DNA of 64,000 nt. Origin: Nitrospirota bacterium (GTDB lineage Bacteria > Nitrospirota > Thermodesulfovibrionia > Thermodesulfovibrionales > SM23-35). Below are positions 45,127 through 56,800 of this stretch, in pieces. The number at the start of each line of letters is the position of its first letter. The stretch's first letter is position 1. Under the pieces are notes generated by a model. The model ran no database searches, was not told where the DNA came from, and worked only from the letters and a program-made list of their open reading frames with translations. A program made the position numbers and the translations under genes. The DNA is taken from positions 43,620 through 107,619 of the forward strand of contig JBFMCL010000010.1 of assembly GCA_040754395.1 (NCBI GenBank), read 5' to 3'.

Positions 45127-46617
45127 ATGTCTGATGAGCATATCGAAAATAATTCCACTGGCAATGAAATGCACGGAGAACAGGAAGAGGACTTCGCCGT
45201 ACTGTTCGCACAGAGCAATATGGCCGAAAGGCTGTTTCCCGGGCAGAAGGTCAGGGCACAGGTGGTGAGTATATCGGGCGAATTTGTATACATCGACCTT
45301 GGCGGAAAAACTGAAGGCGCGATAGACCTGAACGAATTCGTCAGTAAGGATGGTGGAATCGGTGTCCGCGAGGGTGATGAGATAGAGGCGTTTTTTGTCT
45401 CTGTCCAGGACGGTCTTCTGAAGCTCACGACCCTTATAGGCGGGTATTCAGCAGCGACATTGCACGCAATCAGGGATGCGCACGAAGCCGGCGTTCCGGT
45501 GAACGGAGATGTCAAGCGGGAGATTAGGGGAGGCTTCGAGATATCAGTGGGAGGCGTAAGATGTTTCTGTCCTTTTTCTCAGATAGACCTGAAAGGTGGA
45601 AGTGACAATAACGGGTATGTCAGACGGACATTCCCCTTTAAAGTACTCGAATACAGAGATGAAGGAAAAAAAATAGTCCTCTCAAGGCGGGTGCTCCTTG
45701 AACAGGAGAAGGAGGAAAAGGTCCGGAAGTTAAGGGAGACCCTCGTTGAGGGCATGGATGTCCCTGCAGAAGTGAAATCCGTACAGAAGTTCGGGGTTTT
45801 CGTAGACCTGGGAGGCATTGACGGACTTATTCCCGTAAGCGAAATATCGTGGGACAGGAATATCAGTCCCGGGGACGTGCTCTCTGTCGGGCAACACATC
45901 AGTGCAAGGATTCTTTCTCTGGACTGGGAGAAAAACCGTATCACTTTGAGTTACAAGGCGATGCAGCCTGATCCCTGGGACTCTGCAGCGGTCAGGTATC
46001 CGGCAGACAGCAGAGTGAGCGGCACTGTTGTACGTCTGTCTCCCTTTGGAGCTTTTGTCAGGCTTGAACCCGGCATTGACGGCCTCGTCCATATCTCCAA
46101 TCTCGGCGCCGGAAGAAGGATCAACCATCCGAAGGAAGTTGTGGCAACTGGTCAATGGGTGGATGTCTATGTGCTCTCGGTAGACCCGCAGAACCGGAAG
46201 ATTGCGCTCTCCATGCAGCCGAGGGTTGAGCCGGCTAAGATCATTCTCCCCTCCGAGGGAGATATCGTAGACGGAATAGTCGAAAGAATCATGCCGTACG
46301 GGATATTTGTAAAATTGAATACCGGCATTACCGGTCTGGTACCGAACCAGGAAATGGGAACTCCCTCAGGCACAGATCACAGGAGCATGTTCCCTCCCGG
46401 CAGAGAGATGCAGGTTGCGGTGATTGAAGTGGATACGGTTCACAACAAGGTCCGCCTCAGCCGCAAGGCGGTGCTCGAAAAGACTGCACAGGATGAGTTT
46501 AGAGAGTACACGGAATCTGTCAGGAAATCTGCTGCATCCTCTGGAGGACTCGGAAATTTGGGCGACATCCTGAAGTCTAAACTGGAAGAAAAAAACGGGG
46601 TCAGGTCTCAACATTAA
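45127..46617 (+). CDS. rpsA: Ribosomal protein S1-like multi-S1-domain protein (probable paralog)
   Basis: Repeated S1 motifs (YIDLGGKTEG, FGVFVDLGGIDGLIPVSEISW, FGAFVRL..GIDGLVHISNL); last codons and stop lie within the transposon-end repeat. Confidence 0.8.
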   Translation: MSDEHIENNSTGNEMHGEQEEDFAVLFAQSNMAERLFPGQKVRAQVVSISGEFVYIDLGGKTEGAIDLNEFVSKDGGIGVREGDEIEAFFVSVQDGLLKLTTLIGGYSAATLHAIRDAHEAGVPVNGDVKREIRGGFEISVGGVRCFCPFSQIDLKGGSDNNGYVRRTFPFKVLEYRDEGKKIVLSRRVLLEQEKEEKVRKLRETLVEGMDVPAEVKSVQKFGVFVDLGGIDGLIPVSEISWDRNISPGDVLSVGQHISARILSLDWEKNRITLSYKAMQPDPWDSAAVRYPADSRVSGTVVRLSPFGAFVRLEPGIDGLVHISNLGAGRRINHPKEVVATGQWVDVYVLSVDPQNRKIALSMQPRVEPAKIILPSEGDIVDGIVERIMPYGIFVKLNTGITGLVPNQEMGTPSGTDHRSMFPPGREMQVAVIEVDTVHNKVRLSRKAVLEKTAQDEFREYTESVRKSAASSGGLGNLGDILKSKLEEKNGVRSQH

Positions 46618-46643
46618 ACATTTCTTGTTCCTGCCCTCTCACG

Positions 46644-47558
46644 CTAAATGGTTGTCTTGTTTTTCGTCTTCTCTTCATACCGCTTGCATGCCTGGGAGAC
46701 CGCGGCATAATCCATCTGGAACAAGGCGCCTATTTCTCTCAGGCTCATTGGGGTGAACTGCTTTATCAGAAAGAGTGTCATCTGGCGCAGAAAATTGCCC
46801 CTCCTCCTGCTAAGTATTTCTTCCCTGGAGACTGAAAACTCAGACATGACTTGCTGAATGATCTCTTCAGCCGTATGTGCGGTGAGCATTCTGGTCTCCG
46901 GAATCTCCCGCATATTGCCTATTTGTTCCGCCCGTTCCCTGATGGCGTGCAGGAAGTCTTCATCGCCAAGCACAACGCCCCTGAAGGAGTCTTTCACAGG
47001 GTTCTCCATCTTCAGATTTTCCATCACATACGATTCGTATTTCTTTCGGGACCTCTCAGGATCAGTGTCAAACTGCTCCAGAATAAACCCTGTATCGAGC
47101 TTTACCGATGATTTCTCTCCAATGACATAACCTCGATAACTGCTCCACGGATATCCCTTTAAATTTTCGACAATACCTGCCCTGTAAGGATTGAGATGGA
47201 TATACGTAGAGAGCTGGATTCCATAATTGTTCTCATCGACAAGGAGGGATTTGTATCTTCCCTGGAAAACCACCCCCACAAGTTTATGACGCGCCTTGAA
47301 CCAGTTGACGTAGGAGGTGTTGAGATAGTGCATGCCTTCAGAGATATTGGCCAAAGGGGTCTTAAGGAAAAGATGGTAATGGTTGTCCATGAGACAATAC
47401 GCAAAACAGACAAAAGAATATTTCAGGCAGGTCTCATTAATCTTCCGGAGGAATGTCTGCCGGTCTTCATCATCATGAAAGACTGGTTCCCTCCGGTTGC
47501 CCCGGACAGTGATATGATACACTGCATTCTCAAAGGAGAGCCTCAAAGGTCTCGCCAT
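46644..47558 (-). CDS. RAYT/Y1-type HUH transposase with C-terminal DnaA-C-like HTH
   Basis: MARPLR, YHITVRGN, YCLMDNHYHL (HUH), QGRYKS, YIHLNP (catalytic Tyr), WSSY; HTH SLREIGALF. Confidence 0.92.
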   Translation of the reverse strand: MARPLRLSFENAVYHITVRGNRREPVFHDDEDRQTFLRKINETCLKYSFVCFAYCLMDNHYHLFLKTPLANISEGMHYLNTSYVNWFKARHKLVGVVFQGRYKSLLVDENNYGIQLSTYIHLNPYRAGIVENLKGYPWSSYRGYVIGEKSSVKLDTGFILEQFDTDPERSRKKYESYVMENLKMENPVKDSFRGVVLGDEDFLHAIRERAEQIGNMREIPETRMLTAHTAEEIIQQVMSEFSVSREEILSRRRGNFLRQMTLFLIKQFTPMSLREIGALFQMDYAAVSQACKRYEEKTKNKTTI

Positions 47559-47564
47559 ATTGGG

Positions 47565-47593
47565 AGATTACCACACAAGGCTATTTATGTCAA
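47565..47593 (-). promoter_or_regulatory. Transposase promoter partly embedded in the terminal repeat; predicts a leaderless mRNA
   Basis: Minus strand TTGACA (47588-47593), 17 nt, TG-n-TAATCT (47565-47570), 6 nt, ATG; no SD. Confidence 0.6.
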
Positions 47594-47605
47594 ATTTTGA
47601 GACCT

Positions 47606-47627
47606 GACCCCGTTAAGACCCCGTTAA
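47606..47627. repeat. 11-bp tandem duplication at the right element end
   Basis: GACCCCGTTAA at 47606-47616 and 47617-47627. Confidence 0.85.
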
Positions 47628-47643
47628 TTTTTATAAAGCGACA

Positions 47644-47892
47644 CTATTTTATTCCTTTTGAAATTTTTTTAGGGCCGGGAAGATCGGCAAGAATCATGCA
47701 TGACCGCTCTAATTTAGCTGCTGCCAAACGTATACGCCGGATGTCTTCCCTGTGTCCCTCAATCGTGCCGTGAGCAAAATTGAGCCGGGCGACGTTCATT
47801 CCCCACCTCATCAATTCCTCAAGGACGGTTTCTGAACGAGAGGCCGGGCCGATTGTGCATACGATTTTCGTTTTGTGATCAGACAATTTCAC
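47644..47892 (-). pseudogene. pyk: Truncated pyruvate kinase (first ~75 codons only)
   Basis: KTKIVCTIGPAS...MNVARLNFAHG...ILADLPGPK, then unrelated codons and a stop. Confidence 0.88.
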
Positions 47893-47899
47893 ACCCACA

Positions 47900-49012
47900 C
47901 TATTTCCCCCTAATCTGCACATACCGTGCAATGCCGTTTCTGGTAATCAAGCCGGAAAGTTTGTTGTTTTCTATAATGACTAACCGTCCTTTGTCTTCTT
48001 TTATCATTAATTCAAGTGCTTTCATGACTTCGTCTTCAGGAGAGACCTCCCATCTTTTGTCATGTGGCACTAAAATATCAGCTACCTTCTCCCTCCCCCA
48101 ATTTTCTCTATGAATATTTTTAACCTCTTTGAGGGTAACAATGCCGAGAAATTTTTCGTCATCGATGATTGGGAATCCACCATAGCCATATCTGAGAAAA
48201 TAATTAGTCACAGCCTCATCGACGGTAATGAATGAACTGAGTGTCACTATATCCTTCACCATTATGTCTCTAACTTTAATCCCTGACAAGCTTTCCTGAA
48301 GGGTTGATTGCTGGTAACTCGCCTGCGCTGCTGTATAGAGGAACCACCCTATGAGCATCAGCCACAATCCCACCTGGATACCGGTAAATATGGAGAATAT
48401 TCCAAAAATGATAAAAAACAGGGCGATTTTCTGCCCGATGCTTGAGGCCTTCTGGGTTGCGTAATAAAAATTCTTTTTCTTCTCCCAGATTACGGACCTC
48501 AATACCCTACCGCCGTCCATAGGAAAACCAGGGATGAGGTTAAACACACCGATAATAAGATTGATCTGTGCGAGATAAGAAAAAAGCGCCTTTATGCCAC
48601 CTGTTGTATTCCCCGATAAGAAGAAAAAAAGAACAGACAGGAAGAAGCTTGAAAGCGGGCCTGCAATGGCAATCCTGAATTCTGCCTTTGGATTAGGCGG
48701 TTCCCCTTTCATCTGCGCAACGCCGCCGAAAATAAAGAGGGTAATGCTTTCTATAGATATCTTATATCTCTGGGCGACAAAGGAGTGGGCGAGTTCATGG
48801 AATGCTACCGAGGCAAAAAGCAATAGGGCTGCGAGAGTGCCTTTTATCCAGTATGAGGCTGTCGGAAGATCAGGCGCTGCATTCGGGAAATAGTACGTAG
48901 ACAGGGACCATGTTATCAAGCCAAAGACAATAAGCCATGAGAAATGCACCCGTATCGGTATCCCCATTATTTTCCCGATTCTCCATGCGCCCTGAAATAA
49001 TGCGCTATTCAT
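47900..49012 (-). CDS. Site-2 (M50) intramembrane metalloprotease with CBS pair
   Basis: HELAH, NLIPGFPMDGGR, multiple TM segments, C-terminal CBS repeats. Confidence 0.93.
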   Translation of the reverse strand: MNSALFQGAWRIGKIMGIPIRVHFSWLIVFGLITWSLSTYYFPNAAPDLPTASYWIKGTLAALLLFASVAFHELAHSFVAQRYKISIESITLFIFGGVAQMKGEPPNPKAEFRIAIAGPLSSFFLSVLFFFLSGNTTGGIKALFSYLAQINLIIGVFNLIPGFPMDGGRVLRSVIWEKKKNFYYATQKASSIGQKIALFFIIFGIFSIFTGIQVGLWLMLIGWFLYTAAQASYQQSTLQESLSGIKVRDIMVKDIVTLSSFITVDEAVTNYFLRYGYGGFPIIDDEKFLGIVTLKEVKNIHRENWGREKVADILVPHDKRWEVSPEDEVMKALELMIKEDKGRLVIIENNKLSGLITRNGIARYVQIRGK

Positions 49013-50822: not shown

Positions 50823-53800
50823 TTAATCGCCTGGGGAAGGTATTCTCACCTCGACCGAGTGTTCCTGACGGTCGTCAACAAGGGGGATAGCCTGATCGTC
50901 GCGCTCAACACCATCGACTATCACACGTGTCCCGCCATTTCCGGTGCGCGTTTGCAGGACAGTGATATGGTAGATAGTTTCCCGGTATCGGTAGTGTACC
51001 TTGAATGTCTCCCAATCAGCAGGGAGGCACGGTGCGAAACTCAGTTTGTCTATGTTAAGCCGCAGCCCTAGAAGTGATTCCACGATAAGCCGGTACATCC
51101 AACCGGCAGATCCAGTGTACCATGTCCATCCACCGCGGCCGGTGTGCGGCGGGAACGCATATACGTCCGCAGCGACAACATACGGTTCCACTTTATAGGT
51201 TGCAATCCCCTCCGGTAATTTCGCATGGTTTATCGGATTTATCATTGCCAGCAGTTCCCATGCACGTCTGCTGTCGCCTAATTGAGCGAACGCCATTGCT
51301 GTCCAGATTGCCCCATGAGTGTATTGTCCGCCATTTTCCCTGACGCCGGGGACGTACCCTTTTATATAGCCGGGATTCAAATTCGATCTATCGAAGGGCG
51401 GGTCCAGGAGCTGGACCAGCGCATGCTCTCGGTTAACGAGGCGCTTATCCACAGCTTCCATTGCCATACGCGAGCGTTCAGCATCTCCGGCACCTGATAG
51501 AACGGACCAGCTTTGCGGAATGGAATCAATTTGGCATTCAGGATTACTCGCCGATCCGAGCGGCGATCCGTCGTCGAAGTAAGCACGGCGATACCATTCA
51601 CCATCCCAACCATTCTGCTCGATGTTCCGGCGCAGCTGAGCCGCCTCCCTCTCACAGCGTTCGACGAAGGGCAGGTCATCATGTATGCGTGCAATATCAG
51701 TGAACCTCATGAGCACTTCATAGAGGAAGAATCCCAACCATACACTTTCGCCTTTGCCGTGTTCGCCCACAACGTTCATGCCGTCGTTCCAATCACCCGA
51801 GCCGATGAGCGGCAGGCCGTGTACGCCTACTAAGCTGATGCCTCTCAGGATAGCCCGCACACAGTGATCGTATAAACTGGTCGCTTGTTCAGACCGCTTG
51901 GGAAGATCGTAATACGAGTCCTCGTCGGCATTTACCGGGCGGCCCTCGATGAAGTAGACGGATTCATCCAATACCCCGGTGTCTCCGGTGCTGATAACGT
52001 AACGGCACGTGGCCAACGGTAACCAAAGGAAATCGTCCGAACAGTGAGTACGCACGCCGCGCCCTGACGGATGATGCCACCAATGCTGAACATCTCCCTC
52101 CTGGAACTGACGGGCAGCACAGAGGAGGATGTGTTCGCGTACGAGACGCGGCTCTGTGTGGATGAGTGCCATCACGTCCTGCAACTGATCGCGGAAACCG
52201 AAGGCGCCTGCCGACTGGTAGTATCCGCTGCGCGCCCAAAGGCGGCACGCTATAGTTTGGTATAAGAGCCAGCCGTTGGTCAGTACATTTACGGTCGGGT
52301 CGGGTGTTTCCACATTCACTGCGCCGAGCGTCTTATTCCAGTACTGCCAGACTGTTTCAAGCGTAAAGCGCGCTACAGCAGATCCACGAAAGCGCCGCAG
52401 CAGGTTGTCGGCGTCATTGGCATCTTGCCCTACGCCGAGTCTGAAGATGATCTCGCGTTCTTGTCCGTCGGCTAATTCGAATGGTATCTGTATAGCGGCG
52501 CAGGGATCCAAAGCGGCTCCTACCTTCCCGGAAAGCCGAGAGCGTTTCATCGCAGCCGGACTCCGAAGTGTGCCGTTGCGCCCAAGGAACTCTGTCCTGT
52601 CGCCGCTTAAGCTCCGGTTCGTATCGTCCACATCGAAGAAAGCAGTCCGGTTGCGAAATTCCGTGTTATATGAGTTGCGCGCAAAGAGCGCGCCGCTATT
52701 CGGGTCAATTTCGGTGATAACGTGCATGGACGATTTCGTCCGCAGGTCGCCAAGAACCCATTCAACGTATCCAGTAGTGGAAAGTCGGCGTGATCGCCCC
52801 GACTCGTTTCGCACTTTGAGCACCGTGAACTTGATAGGTGCATCCATGGCCACATAAACCCACACTTCTGAGTGGATACCACGCTCTGTGTGCTCGAAGA
52901 CGCTGTAACCAAATCCGTGTCGGGTGACGTAAGGTGTCGCCCCGCGGCTGGGCAGCGGCATGGGGGACCAGAAGTGGCCGCGCTCTTCGTCACGGATGTA
53001 AAATGCCTCTCCGCTCGAATCGCTCACGGGATCGTTCCCCCAGGGAGTGAGGCGGAACTCATGGGCATTCTCGCTCCAGGTGTAGGCAAGCCCGCTCTCT
53101 GAAATGATGGACCCGAAGTGCGGGTTTGCCAGCACATTCACCCACGGCGCCGGCGTCATCTGGCCATAAGCGGTCGTAATAACGTACTCGCGACCGTCAG
53201 CTGTGAATCCGCCCAGCCCGTTGAAGAACGCCAGATCGTGGCGAGGCAGCGCGCCGACCGCCAAGGGTTCGGAGCGGTGGGTTCTGGTCAGTGTAAGGAG
53301 CGGCACTGTTACTTCCACAAGACTGCGACGGTTGATCTGGTCTGCCAGCGCCCCACGGCTATCGGTGATGATGGCGCGAGCGACCGTTTGGATCAGGATG
53401 CGGTCCTCCTCCGATATCTGGTCCGCAGGTCTTAGGAAAATGCCGCCGGGTCGATTGGTCACGTTAGCTTCGGTGCCCGCGGCAATGAGCCCCATGATCT
53501 GGTCTTGCAGAAGTTGCCGGTAACCGGCGTGATCTTCGTTCCAGATCACCAGGTCAATCGCCAGTCCCTTCAAACGCCAGTATGCGTGAGCCTGCACGAG
53601 TTGGCGCACCAGTTCGATATTTGTAGGATCTTCTATCTGCACCAGCACGATCGGCAAATCGCCGGAGATGGCGTAGCCCCAGAGACCGGATTGACCCCGG
53701 TGGTTTTTAATGAGGACGCTCGGTTCAGCGCGCAGCGAAGAATTAGCATAAATTATCGAGCTGGCAAGGCGCCCATAGAGTTGCGCGTCGGCCTCTGTGG

Positions 53801-56800
53801 CATTGAACTGCCGCAGAAAGACCTGGCCATGTGTCCATGCCAGATCAAAGACGCGATCCGCGAGATGTCGATCACGGTATTTCTCCACAAGGCCCAGACA
53901 CACGTCGCGGGTTTCGCCGATGCCCGAGACAATATTTATCGTTACCGATTTTTCCGGATCCAGCGTTATCCGATACCGGATCGCGACAATCGGGTCGAGC
54001 ACGGAACCCTCACTGTCCGAGAGAGCACCCGTAAAAAAACCATCTGCCCCGCTCATCGCTTGCGGATTTTCAACGGTGTTTCCACGGCCGATGAACTGCA
54101 TGCGATCCGTCTCATAGGAAACTTCTCCGATCTCCGCCTCATGCACAGCCATCAGGTGAAACATCCAAGGCGTCTGCTCGCCTTGGGAGCGGGGTCGGCG
54201 AGTGCAGAGGATCGCCTGCTGCTGGCGAATGATCTCGGTCTGAACAAAGAGATTGCTGAACGCCGGATGCAGTGCTTCCGCGGCAGACGGTGCAAGAACC
54301 ACTTCCGCGTAACTCGTAACATCAATCGCTCTGCGTGTCCGAGCCCGGTTGGTGATGCGGACTCGGCGCAGTTCAATGTCATCCTCGGGTGAAACAGCGA
54401 TCTCCGTATGTGTGTCAAAGTCGTGGTCCCGGCAGCGAAACTCTACTTTCGCCTCCGAGAAAATCGCTTCGTAATTATTCGATTGATTGGCCGGTCGTTT
54501 GAGCGTCGGCTGATATGCGGTTGACCAGAACTCTCCGCTCGCCACGTCGCGGAGGTAACAGAATGTGCCCCAGTTGTCGCGGGTAGTGTCTTCGTGCCAT
54601 CGTGTCACTGCGATATCCTTCCAACGGCTGTAACCGCCCCCCGCATTTGTAATCATCACGTGGTATCTACCGTTGGACAACAACTGCACTTCAGGGAGCG
54701 GCGTATCCGGGCTGTTAAAAACGCGGACCGGCATCCCTGTGACACTGGAAGCCCCCTTTATGTAGGAGAGTTCGGCGGTGTGCGAATAAAACGCCGTTGC
54801 CTTTGGTACCCGCTCTTGGAGCAACAGCATGGTTGCCTGGAACACCGGGTCCGACTCGAATCGCTTCTGCATCGGACGGTCCAGGAGCAGATAGGCCAAA
54901 GAGAGCAAGCTCATTCCAACGTGATGTGCCATGAAGGAGCGAACCACAGCACTCGACTGTCCGCGCGGCAGACGTGAAGGTGTGTAGTCGATCGCTTCAT
55001 AGAAGCCGTATTTTCCTTCGAACCCTTCAGCAGAGAGCCGCTGCAGATTCATGCACGCTTCCTCTGGCGCTACCATCAACGCAAGCGCTGAGGCATAGGG
55101 GGCAATTACCAGATCCCCGGAGAGCCCGCGTTGGAGCCCCAGGCCAGGCACGCCAAAAGCGCGGTACTGGTAGTTAAGATGGCCATCGATCACGTTGTAG
55201 CCGGATTCCGAAATACCCCACGGCACTCCGCGTCTCTTTCCATATTCGATCTGCCCAGCCACAGCCGCCTTATAAGTCTGGTCGAGTAGCGTATTTTCAT
55301 ACGTAGGCATTACCAGCAATGGCATGAGATACTCAAACATCGATCCGCCCCACGAAAGGAGAATCGGCTCTCCACTCGTAGTGGTGAGCAGGCGCCCCAG
55401 GGTGAACCAGCTCTCCTGCGGCAGTTGTTCCTGCGCAATCGCCACAAAACTGCACAATCTCGCTTCTGAAGCCAGTAGATCGTAGTAACTCGAGTCCCGC
55501 CGGCGTTCACCTACGTTGTACCCGATAGTCAATAGATGGCGCTCCTCGTCGAAAAGAAAATCATATTCCATACGGGCGAGTTCGCCGGATTGCAATGCAA
55601 GCTGCTCGATAGCCGCGATTCTCTCAATGGCACTTTGGTTGCCAGTTCCTGCCAATTCGCGCAGTGTCGGTATCTCATCGATGACGCTAACTGCTGGCGG
55701 GTTAAGAAGGGTCAGCTCATCGAGGGCGTCACGGCATTGCCGGGCAAATGCACGCGCCCACCACCCGGCCAGGTTCTCACGGTCGGCATCAAAGCCAACG
55801 ACCACTTCTGCAGCAGATAGTGCCAGATGATCAAGGCACTGCCGAGCCGCCATAAGTGTAGTTGGCGGGGACTTGAGCGCTGACTCCATGCCTTGCCGAA
55901 GATGGGCAATCCCCGCTGGTGCGATTACTCCAGGAGTATCCGCAAAAATCCCCACGAGAATCATTAGTGTATCGCTGAGGCCGTCAAACAATCTCGCTCC
56001 AATGATCTTTTGATCGGGAAGCGCGAGCAGACCCTGCCGCAATGTCAACAGATGGCCTGCAAGGTTGCCGCTGTCTACCGTAGAAATGTAGTAGGGCGAT
56101 AGTGGTTTCAGAGATTGCGTGCTGTACCAGTTGTAAAAGTGTCCCCGGTATCGTTCCAATGTTTTCATTGTGTGGAATGCATTCGCCGTGCGCTTGATGA
56201 GCTGTCCTGTTGAAATATAGCCGAAGTCGTAGGCGGATAAATTCGCGAGCAGCGCAAGGCCCATGTTGGTCGGCGAGGTGCGATGGACGGCCACGGCAAC
56301 CGGATACTCCTGATAGTAATCCGGCGGCAGCCAATTATCTTCCGGGTCGACAAATGTGTCGAAGAACGCCCAGCTCTTTCGTGCAAGCTTCCGGAGAAAG
56401 AAGGTCTGTTCTTCCGTCAACCTTGCTCCACGGCGGGCGAGCGGTCGGCTAATCCACCACGCGATAGCAGGGGAAGCAAACCAGAAACCCAGTATAGGCA
56501 CAGCCACAGCTAATACCTCCGGCCTCGAAATAGTCAGATAAATCATCGCGACAAAAGCAATAATGGGGGCGATCCACATCATTCGGTAAGATGCGACGAT
56601 TTCCGCGTGGCTGCTATGGGCCGTGATGCCCGACGGACTCCATTCGAGAAGTCGCTTACGCGTAACCAGCATCCGCCACGTGGTGCGCATAAGCGCATCG
56701 AGACTGTAAAATGCCTCGTAAGGCAAGCAGACGAGCGAAAATACAACTTGAGCGAAACGCCTGCGCGCAGAGCGCACTGAGGCAGCAAGGTGCTGCCTCA

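Follow-up and report, generated by a model that had tools for sequence, protein, structure and literature searches.

The subject of this analysis is a 1015-bp unit in a 64,000-nt stretch of a Nitrospirota genome assembly (GenBank GCA_040754395.1, contig JBFMCL010000010.1, positions 43,620 to 107,619 of the forward strand; hereafter the window), in which a gene for an HUH nuclease of the RAYT/Y1 type lies between long terminal inverted repeats (TIRs). Judged by its sequence, the unit is a TIRtron encoding a TIRYT protein, with all tested defining features of that class present. Both names, TIRYT for the protein and TIRtron for the unit, come from Di Nocera et al. 2013 (PMC3733652), who described RAYT-like genes with long terminal inverted repeats instead of REPs. 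Since the class was named in 2013, what we describe is a re-discovery rather than a new kind of element. We consider it probable that the unit is an insertion-sequence-like TIRtron that is mobile now or was mobile recently. The features of the unit and of its immediate surroundings are the following.

46594 to 46621: 3′-side terminal inverted repeat of the gene, with the core GGGGTCAGGTCT at 46597 to 46608 (plus strand)
46597 to 47611, minus strand: the whole TIRtron from GGGG to CCCC, 1015 bp (46594 to 47614 with the AAC/GTT extension)
46644 to 47558, minus strand: TIRYT gene, 304 aa, comprising an HUH/Y1 nuclease, a linker and a DnaA-domain-IV-like helix-turn-helix (HTH)
46680 to 46868, minus strand: Bac_DnaA_C-like HTH, residues 231 to 293 (Pfam E 4e-12)
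47196 to 47531, minus strand: Y1_Tnp (HUH) domain, residues 10 to 121 (Pfam E 6e-14)
47565 to 47593, minus strand: predicted promoter, read as −35 TTGACA, 17-nt spacer, TGg-TAATCT, 6 nt, ATG
47587 to 47614: 5′-side terminal inverted repeat of the gene, with the core GGGGTCAGGTCT at 47600 to 47611 (minus strand)
47606 to 47627: 11-nt tandem duplication, two copies of GACCCCGTTAA, made up of the outer 6 nt of the repeat (GGGGTC, minus strand) and 5 nt of flank
47644 to 47931, minus strand: 5′ fragment of a pyruvate kinase gene (pyk), 95 aa, ending just past the DLPGPK motif (Pfam PK barrel)

Repeats, protein and predicted promoter of the unit

The two arms (46594–46621 and 47587–47614) are 28 nt each, are complementary at 25 of 28 positions (89%) according to a repeat finder, and share a perfect 18-nt core, AACGGGGTCAGGTCTCAA. 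This core is the longest exact inverted repeat in 46300–47900, where the maximum over 1000 shuffles was 14 nt, and its 15-mer occurs at only two places in the 64-kb window, namely the two arms. A preliminary description, made from the letters alone, had read the arms as inverted repeats that bracket only the transposase, are accompanied by no direct target duplication, and are not self-complementary hairpins. Each of these observations held up: a single open reading frame (ORF; 46644–47558, minus strand, 304 aa) stands alone between the arms, no direct repeat of the kind left by target-site duplication was seen in the element flanks in the window, and neither arm folds on itself as single-stranded DNA (minimum free energy 0 to −1 kcal/mol, z about 0 against shuffles), which rules out each arm as a hairpin or REP. 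No GTAG hairpin was found in the arms, and no solo repeats or second element copy in the 64-kb window.

We set the length of the element at 1015 bp because the repeat starts family-wide at GGGG (46597 and 47611 in the window). The outermost AAC/GTT probably lies outside the repeat proper; in a 96%-identical relative of the element, found at locus L081, AAC is missing on one side. The octamer GGGGTCAG, which fits the motif GGGGWSAS exactly, stands at 46597–46604 and again at 47604–47611 (minus strand), and the first G of the 5′-side repeat lies 53 nt before the ATG of the TIRYT gene.

That the enzyme is an HUH protein of the RAYT/Y1-like kind had also been stated at the outset, and is borne out both by the Pfam Y1_Tnp match and by an AlphaFold model (mean predicted local distance difference test score, pLDDT, 83.5), whose best match in Foldseek is E. 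coli TnpA_REP with a REP hairpin (PDB 4ER8, E 2e-7, TM 0.74), followed by the ISDra2, IS608 and IS200 transposases. The HUH fold was picked up by this structure search but missed by a sequence search of the PDB. The HUH motif is H60-Y61-H62 (in NHYHLF), the catalytic tyrosine is Y119 in YIHLNP, and W138-S139-S140 follow; the HUH, Y119-IHLNP and W138-S139-S140 columns are invariant in an alignment of 27 homologs, and the class 2 signature (HuH motif and Y---NP) is present. The protein scores below the cut-offs of two NCBIfam models, with 68.1 bits against 80 for REP_Tyr_transpos (NF047646) and 14.1 bits against 55 for transpos_IS200 (NF033573). An alignment to E. coli DnaA domain IV (PDB 1J1V, E 8.5e-4) covers the C-terminal 65 residues, with DYAAV where DnaA has the base-contacting DHTTV, and Pfam gives an additional weak HTH_28 match in the C-terminal region. 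The ratio of nonsynonymous to synonymous substitution rates (dN/dS) is 0.09 against the L081 copy and 0.09–0.18 between copies that share only the unit in unrelated flanks (see below), and the TIRYT gene has thus been kept functional by purifying selection.

The upstream repeat is predicted to carry part of the promoter of the gene, with a geometry taken from an alignment of 22 loci that have the 53-nt offset. The −35 box TTGACA (47588–47593, minus strand) lies inside the repeat, as its positions 19–24, and is followed by TGgTAATCT (47565–47573, with the −10 box at 47565–47570) and by the ATG at 47556–47558. The −35 box matches at 5 or more of its 6 positions in all 22 loci, and TAnnnT is present in 21 of them. 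A generic scanner left the promoter unflagged because the −10 box matches the consensus at only three of six positions. No Shine-Dalgarno motif precedes the TIRYT ATG, which together with the placement of the promoter leads us to predict a leaderless mRNA whose first base is the A of the ATG. TTGACA is retained in 31 of 60 upstream arms versus 19 of 60 downstream arms, an asymmetry that would fit promoter selection confined to a single arm. A protein occupying the repeat would cover the predicted promoter.

Conservation, copies and junctions across related loci

About 200 related loci were analyzed in total. A scan with one genome per species gave 80 loci with proteins 36–73% identical to the query, from Nitrospirota, Thermodesulfobacteriota, Planctomycetota, Dadabacteria, Omnitrophota, Atribacterota, Aminicenantes, Clostridia, Campylobacterota, Patescibacteria and others, in a patchy distribution; an exhaustive profile-free search returned ∼1,560 clusters (50% identity) at E 1e-30 or better. 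The preliminary description had proposed looking for conserved GGGGTCAGGTCT ends in homologs, and the outcome is strongly positive: an inverted repeat flanks the gene in 57 of the 67 testable homolog loci. The arm consensus across the family is GGGGTCAGGTCTCAACATTTGACAT, and the terminal 12-mer GGGGTCAGGTCT is ∼90% conserved across phyla, though the proteins go down to ∼36% identity. For repeat positions 1–12, identity is 0.98 within an element and 0.90 between elements, while for positions 13–30 it is 0.75 within and 0.54 between, which indicates that the two arms of one element evolve together. This co-evolution would fit either a shared protein specificity or correction by arm-to-arm pairing.

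The layout of the unit is conserved as well. The distance from the first G of the repeat to the ATG is the same 53 nt in 23 related loci and 54–61 nt in most others, the downstream arm adjoins or overlaps the stop codon of the TIRYT gene, and compact elements elsewhere measure 995–1090 bp. Plasmid copies in the cultured species Legionella adelaidensis and Sporomusa termitida (31–33% aa identity) have (A/G)GGGTCAGGCCT ends. One locus departs from the common layout (L002, 2901–4923): its upstream repeat is duplicated (2901 and 2948), and its sole downstream-oriented arm lies 1 kb further on, beyond a 186-aa ORF whose N-terminus is prepilin-like. The locus could represent a variant that carries cargo, or the arm may be an unrelated solo arm.

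All-against-all BLAST comparison revealed many pairs of loci that share only a 1.03–1.09-kb block, 78–95% identical, with unrelated flanks, and in every case the similarity runs, to within a few bases, from the GGGG of one repeat to the CCCC of its partner. Such pairs include 95%-identical copies on separate contigs of >1 Mb in one Aminicenantes metagenome-assembled genome (MAG; L067/L070), two copies with 91% identity in another MAG (L060/L071), and an Aminicenantes/Clostridia pair with 88% identity (L042/L048).

In the window itself, both junctions of the unit touch other genes. The repeat at 46594–46621 supplies the last seven codons and the stop codon (TAA, 46615–46617) of a gene for a protein with four S1 domains, whose C-terminus reads ...LEEKNGVRSQH* in the window versus ...LEEKKNQG* in >100 homologs. 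On the other side, the element is adjoined by the pyk fragment, which covers positions 2–71 of the 328 in the PK barrel profile (E 4.6e-20); no further pyk sequence was found elsewhere in the 64-kb window, and the truncation suggests an element-associated rearrangement or deletion. The relative at L081, on a contig from another sample, carries the element with 97% protein and 96% DNA identity and has the same S1 junction, but it ceases to be homologous to the window where the upstream repeat ends on its outer side. Beyond that point, L081 (1–1210) contains a gene of the Fic/DOC family and, between genes, a run of TGTCGAYA-like repeats, versus the pyk fragment in the window (47615–47950). Since the flank differs at the repeat end, one junction has been exchanged since these two very close strains diverged, either by recombination between two copies or by a transposase-mediated event, both of which imply more than one insertion context.

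The repeats also occur, and commonly, in miniature repeat-spacer-repeat elements. A scan of metagenomes with the pattern GGGGTCAGGTCT-N55-85-AGACCTGACCCC gave at least 120 contigs with matches, in which the miniatures are 79–107 bp long and consist of two inverted repeats, mostly 24–35 nt, and a short spacer, with family-specific inner sequence behind the invariant 12-mer. Among the matches listed, a flanking direct repeat of ≥3 nt is absent in 83 of 84 non-redundant miniatures, GGGG is the exact limit of the inverted repeat in 50 of the 84, the repeat runs on past it in 9, and GGGG is preceded mostly by T or C. A TIRYT gene lies within the fetched stretch in 3 of the 120 miniature contigs (744 kb) among the matches listed, and in those three contigs and in the genome locus L036 the gene's repeats share the lineage-specific inner sequence of the miniatures. 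In this, the miniatures stand to TIRYT genes as REPINs stand to RAYT genes. The sharp contrast with REPs that had been drawn initially is one that we do not uphold, since the miniatures of the family are REPIN-like hairpins and the arms of a full element can pair as one stem. A window-specific 31-mer had no match in the JGI metagenomes, and the 19-mer repeat core had none in 2.9 M viral contigs. Five identical 105-bp miniatures with identical flanks and an exact period of 1918 bp occur at one locus (L135, 349–8125), which is either a 1.9-kb unit arrayed in tandem or an assembly artefact.

One junction feature was overlooked in the first reading, namely the GACCCCGTTAA duplication at the outer end of the upstream repeat. 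An extra GGGGTC is located 3–20 nt outside the repeat in 27 of 475 non-redundant arms, where at most 3.6 are expected, and control hexamers gave counts of 0–4, except for CGGGGT with 11, which overlaps GGGGTC by five bases. In ∼17 of these 27 arms, 4–11 nt of flank together with GGGGTC form a genuine tandem duplication. Where the next base is informative (the window, L012, L065, L102, L113 and L142), the duplicated part comprises exactly six repeat bases, while in a smaller class of junction duplications 12 or more bases are duplicated. Palindromes with matching break positions were also present in the collected loci, with GGGGTC-N-GACCCC seen three times and GGGGTCAGGTCT-NN-AGACCTGACCCC five times. 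At the level of sequence, these duplications and palindromes point to a recurrent strand discontinuity between C6 and A7 and to GGGGTC^AGGTCT as a candidate nick site. An element that starts at A7, with GGGGTC as its target, was considered and rejected, as it leaves the full GGGGTC/GACCCC at both ends unexplained.

Some of these palindromes form local groups. The 26-bp perfect palindromes of the form GGGGTCAGGTCT-NN-AGACCTGACCCC are REP-like and paired (L085 2169–2256, L163 2116–2196 and L180 6–31), and 13-bp GGGGTC-N-GACCCC sites are located at L102 2362 and at L171 2432 and 2471. Both kinds could be minimal elements or excision footprints.

Mobile unit or domesticated gene

The most serious alternative to a mobile unit is a TIRYT gene that has been domesticated and no longer moves, its product being a single-copy HUH protein kept by the host as has been argued for RAYTs, with repeats that act as operators (through autoregulation or looping) or as the master copy for dispersed miniatures. 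In favor of this are the single copy with no other repeats in the 64-kb window, the strong purifying selection on the gene, the predicted −35 box inside its upstream repeat and the low copy number of the group in published surveys. Also in its favor are two loci (L001 and L023) in which gene and upstream repeat persist while the downstream repeat is missing, and the rarity of TIRYT genes near miniatures, at 3 of 120 loci among the matches listed, as with RAYT genes and REPINs. What it does not account for is the occurrence of near-identical 1-kb units, bounded by the repeats, in unrelated flanks both within one MAG and across phyla, the flank that differs at the repeat end between 96%-identical strains, the position of the element, which interrupts the end of the S1 gene and adjoins a truncated pyk, and the patchy taxonomic distribution. 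For these reasons, we regard an immobile gene as unlikely.

Several points nonetheless weigh against mobility and against the cut site proposed above. With a single copy and no solo repeats in the 64-kb window, activity in this genome is unsupported. In the survey of Bertels et al. 2017 (PMC5581495), the RAYT group to which TIRYT genes belong, group 1, is mostly single copy, with 6.3% duplicates and some members on plasmids, and we found no experimental work on TIRYT or TIRtron in the searchable literature, where the terms are used only in this paper and the two others on the class, Di Nocera et al. 2013 and Quentin et al. 2018. A search via S1 homologs recovered no empty site at the nucleotide level, because relatives with a 75%-identical S1 carry different, unalignable DNA after the gene. 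The flank switch at L081 could be the result of homologous recombination between copies rather than of transposase action, and the copies within one MAG could in principle reflect binning errors. Two loci from the closest genome relatives (L001 and L023, Thermodesulfovibrionales) have the gene and the upstream repeat with its promoter intact and no detectable downstream repeat, which fits a function retained by the host independent of mobility; perhaps they have been immobilised or domesticated. The candidate GGGGTC^A site is drawn from ∼17–27 junction duplications that we cannot explain mechanistically, and a cut only between positions 6 and 7 would leave the outer GGGGTC behind, yet GGGGTC travels along with the element. 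Covariation between the HTH helix and the inner repeat showed a trend that is confounded by phylogeny.

Two further explanations fare considerably worse. Terminal inverted repeats of 25–30 bp are typical of DDE insertion sequences, and the repeats might for this reason belong to a DDE-type element that is moved in trans by another transposase and carries the Y1 gene as cargo. We consider this very improbable, as target duplications (k ≥ 3) occur in 0–1 of 84 miniatures among the matches listed and were not seen in the window, the spacing between the repeat and the TIRYT gene is fixed in nearly every locus across phyla, repeat variants specific to a lineage go with the gene beside them, and a Pfam search found no DDE domain in the element. 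A chance repeat, or a transcript structure (a terminator or long-range RNA stem) unrelated to DNA mobility, has in its favor nothing beyond an inverted repeat around a gene and can for practical purposes be dismissed: chance is ruled out by the shuffling result (18 nt versus at most 14) and by the same repeat sequence beside homologs in many phyla, the repeats have no Rfam match, no terminator-like site was found at the arms, and the mRNA would not contain the upstream arm because the predicted promoter lies inside it.

Returning to the TIRtron as a mobile unit, it is most likely a single-strand HUH transposon, for which we can propose a mechanism whose individual steps are each about as apt to be right as wrong. 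The TIRYT protein would recognise both repeats: its HTH, which the preliminary description had already suggested as a possible reader of the repeats, would bind their double-stranded inner half, and its HUH domain the conserved outer 12-mer. Tyr119 would nick one strand, with candidate sites at 46602|46603 (plus strand) and 47606|47605 (minus strand). The element would then move via a single-stranded intermediate, either by ‘peel and paste’ or replicatively, like IS200/IS605 and REP/RAYT. On this single strand, both arms would pair with each other and act as the hairpin, so that the full element would form a panhandle and the miniature a REPIN-like hairpin. Since such arm-to-arm pairing is possible, the chemistry need not be different just because the single arms form no hairpin. 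Occupation of the upstream repeat by the protein would, in addition, repress the promoter of the element.

We also put forward a broader proposal, tentatively and at somewhat short of an even chance: that TIRtrons are an insertion sequence family of their own, still active and pan-bacterial, in which a Y1 HUH nuclease with a DnaA-like HTH acts on symmetric repeats with a near-invariant 12-nt tip, cuts at GGGGTC^A and uses arm pairing in place of a hairpin. If this were true, the TIRtron family would spawn REPIN-like miniatures and provide a mobile ‘missing link’ between IS200/IS605 and domesticated REP/RAYT, and the HTH would give double-strand recognition or local melting, a step that we do not know of for any Y1 transposase. 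Material for experiments is available: the 25-nt consensus and the natural miniatures as substrates, a candidate position for the nick, a leaderless promoter that is predicted to be self-regulated, and two cultured hosts with plasmid copies. For genome annotation, recognition of the TIRtron explains the altered C-terminus of the S1 protein and the truncated pyruvate kinase.

Elsewhere in the window are a 2877-aa ORF at 50823–59456 (minus strand) with two GH94 domains and a glucoamylase domain, resembling a cyclic beta-1,2-glucan synthase, and a 2430-aa ORF at 3469–10761 (minus strand) with PKD, Ig-like, CarboxypepD_reg and Lcl_C domains, a surface protein. One tRNA gene, at 11062–11134 (plus strand), is the only Rfam match in the window.

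Relation to known systems

In addition to naming the class, Di Nocera et al. 2013 (PMC3733652) reported that many TIRs have GGGGWSAS in common, with much the same spacing to the gene, and that some TIRs form dispersed dimer families. Quentin et al. 2018 (PMC6006769) assigned 20 of these authors' 26 TIRYT examples to TnpAY1 subclass 2.1, whose members have a C-terminal Bac_DnaA_C/HTH domain (Bac_DnaA_C, HTH_23 or HTH_28), and regarded this subclass as equivalent to the RAYT group 1 of Bertels et al. 2017 (PMC5581495). Of the RAYT groups in the latter study, group 1 is the largest and the one most like insertion sequences. In one survey, this TIR-flanked group was present in ∼15% of strains. The preliminary description had suggested a poorly characterised class of HUH element, which is correct as to the characterisation; the novelty that it implied is not, given the naming of TIRYT and TIRtron in 2013 (PMC3733652) and the link to the HTH in 2018 (PMC6006769).

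On its architecture and motifs, we would place the window element in RAYT group 1, or TnpAY1 subclass 2.1.2. It shares with TIRtrons the RAYT-like HUH/Y1 protein, the C-terminal HTH of the Bac_DnaA_C type, the long TIRs that are not REPs and the GGGGWSAS motif (here GGGGTCAG) at the characteristic distance from the gene, and some of the family's repeats are likewise moderately abundant, dispersed and dimeric. It differs in nothing essential; the host here is a Thermodesulfovibrionales-like Nitrospirota genome. Some of our observations were not found in those TIRYT papers and may be new: the full 25-nt consensus and its conservation across phyla, the exact GGGG/CCCC boundaries of the unit without target duplication, the promoter within the repeat with its leaderless geometry, the abundance of miniatures in metagenomes and the GGGGTC^A junction duplications.

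To our knowledge, the mechanism of Y1/HUH enzymes is understood only for the hairpin-ended IS200/IS605 elements and for one REP-associated enzyme. With the IS200/IS605 transposases (IS608 and ISDra2 TnpA), the TIRtron shares the HUH/Y1 fold, the lack of target-site duplication and a presumed single-strand mechanism. In contrast, the ends of IS200/IS605 elements are asymmetric subterminal hairpins with guide and cleavage tetranucleotides, whereas TIRtron ends are symmetric and hairpin-free; the TIRtron also has no tnpB partner, and its protein scores 14 against a cut-off of 55 with the IS200 model.

The C-terminal 65 residues of TIRYT align to domain IV of DnaA (1J1V), an HTH that binds the DnaA box. 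Unlike DnaA, TIRYT has neither the AAA+ nor the other DnaA domains, and DHTTV is replaced by DYAAV. The TIRtron repeat is unlike the DnaA box TTATCCACA, as was likewise noted by Quentin et al. (PMC6006769). In one family of 104-bp miniatures (L098 3735–3838, L107 6531–6634 and L158 1529–1632), each arm contains a perfect DnaA box (TTATCCACA / TGTGGATAA), an intriguing observation, as the protein class that goes with these elements has a DnaA-domain-IV-like HTH.

The closest solved fold is that of the REPtron system, comprising E. coli TnpA_REP with REP/BIME sequences and REPINs (PDB 4ER8; PMC3479197, PMC8266576, PMC3337134). In both systems, the gene is located between inverted copies of its presumed substrate and is usually single copy, and dispersed short doublets that are capable of forming hairpins share their sequence with the copies flanking the gene. 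The TIRtron differs in that its arms are not palindromic and have no GTAG tetranucleotide, and in that TIRYT has an extra HTH domain and scores below the REP_Tyr_transpos cut-off. It also differs in that the whole gene-bearing unit is found in unrelated contexts, as an insertion sequence would be. The TIRtron thus resembles the REPtron/REPIN system most, yet its gene-bearing unit behaves like an insertion sequence.

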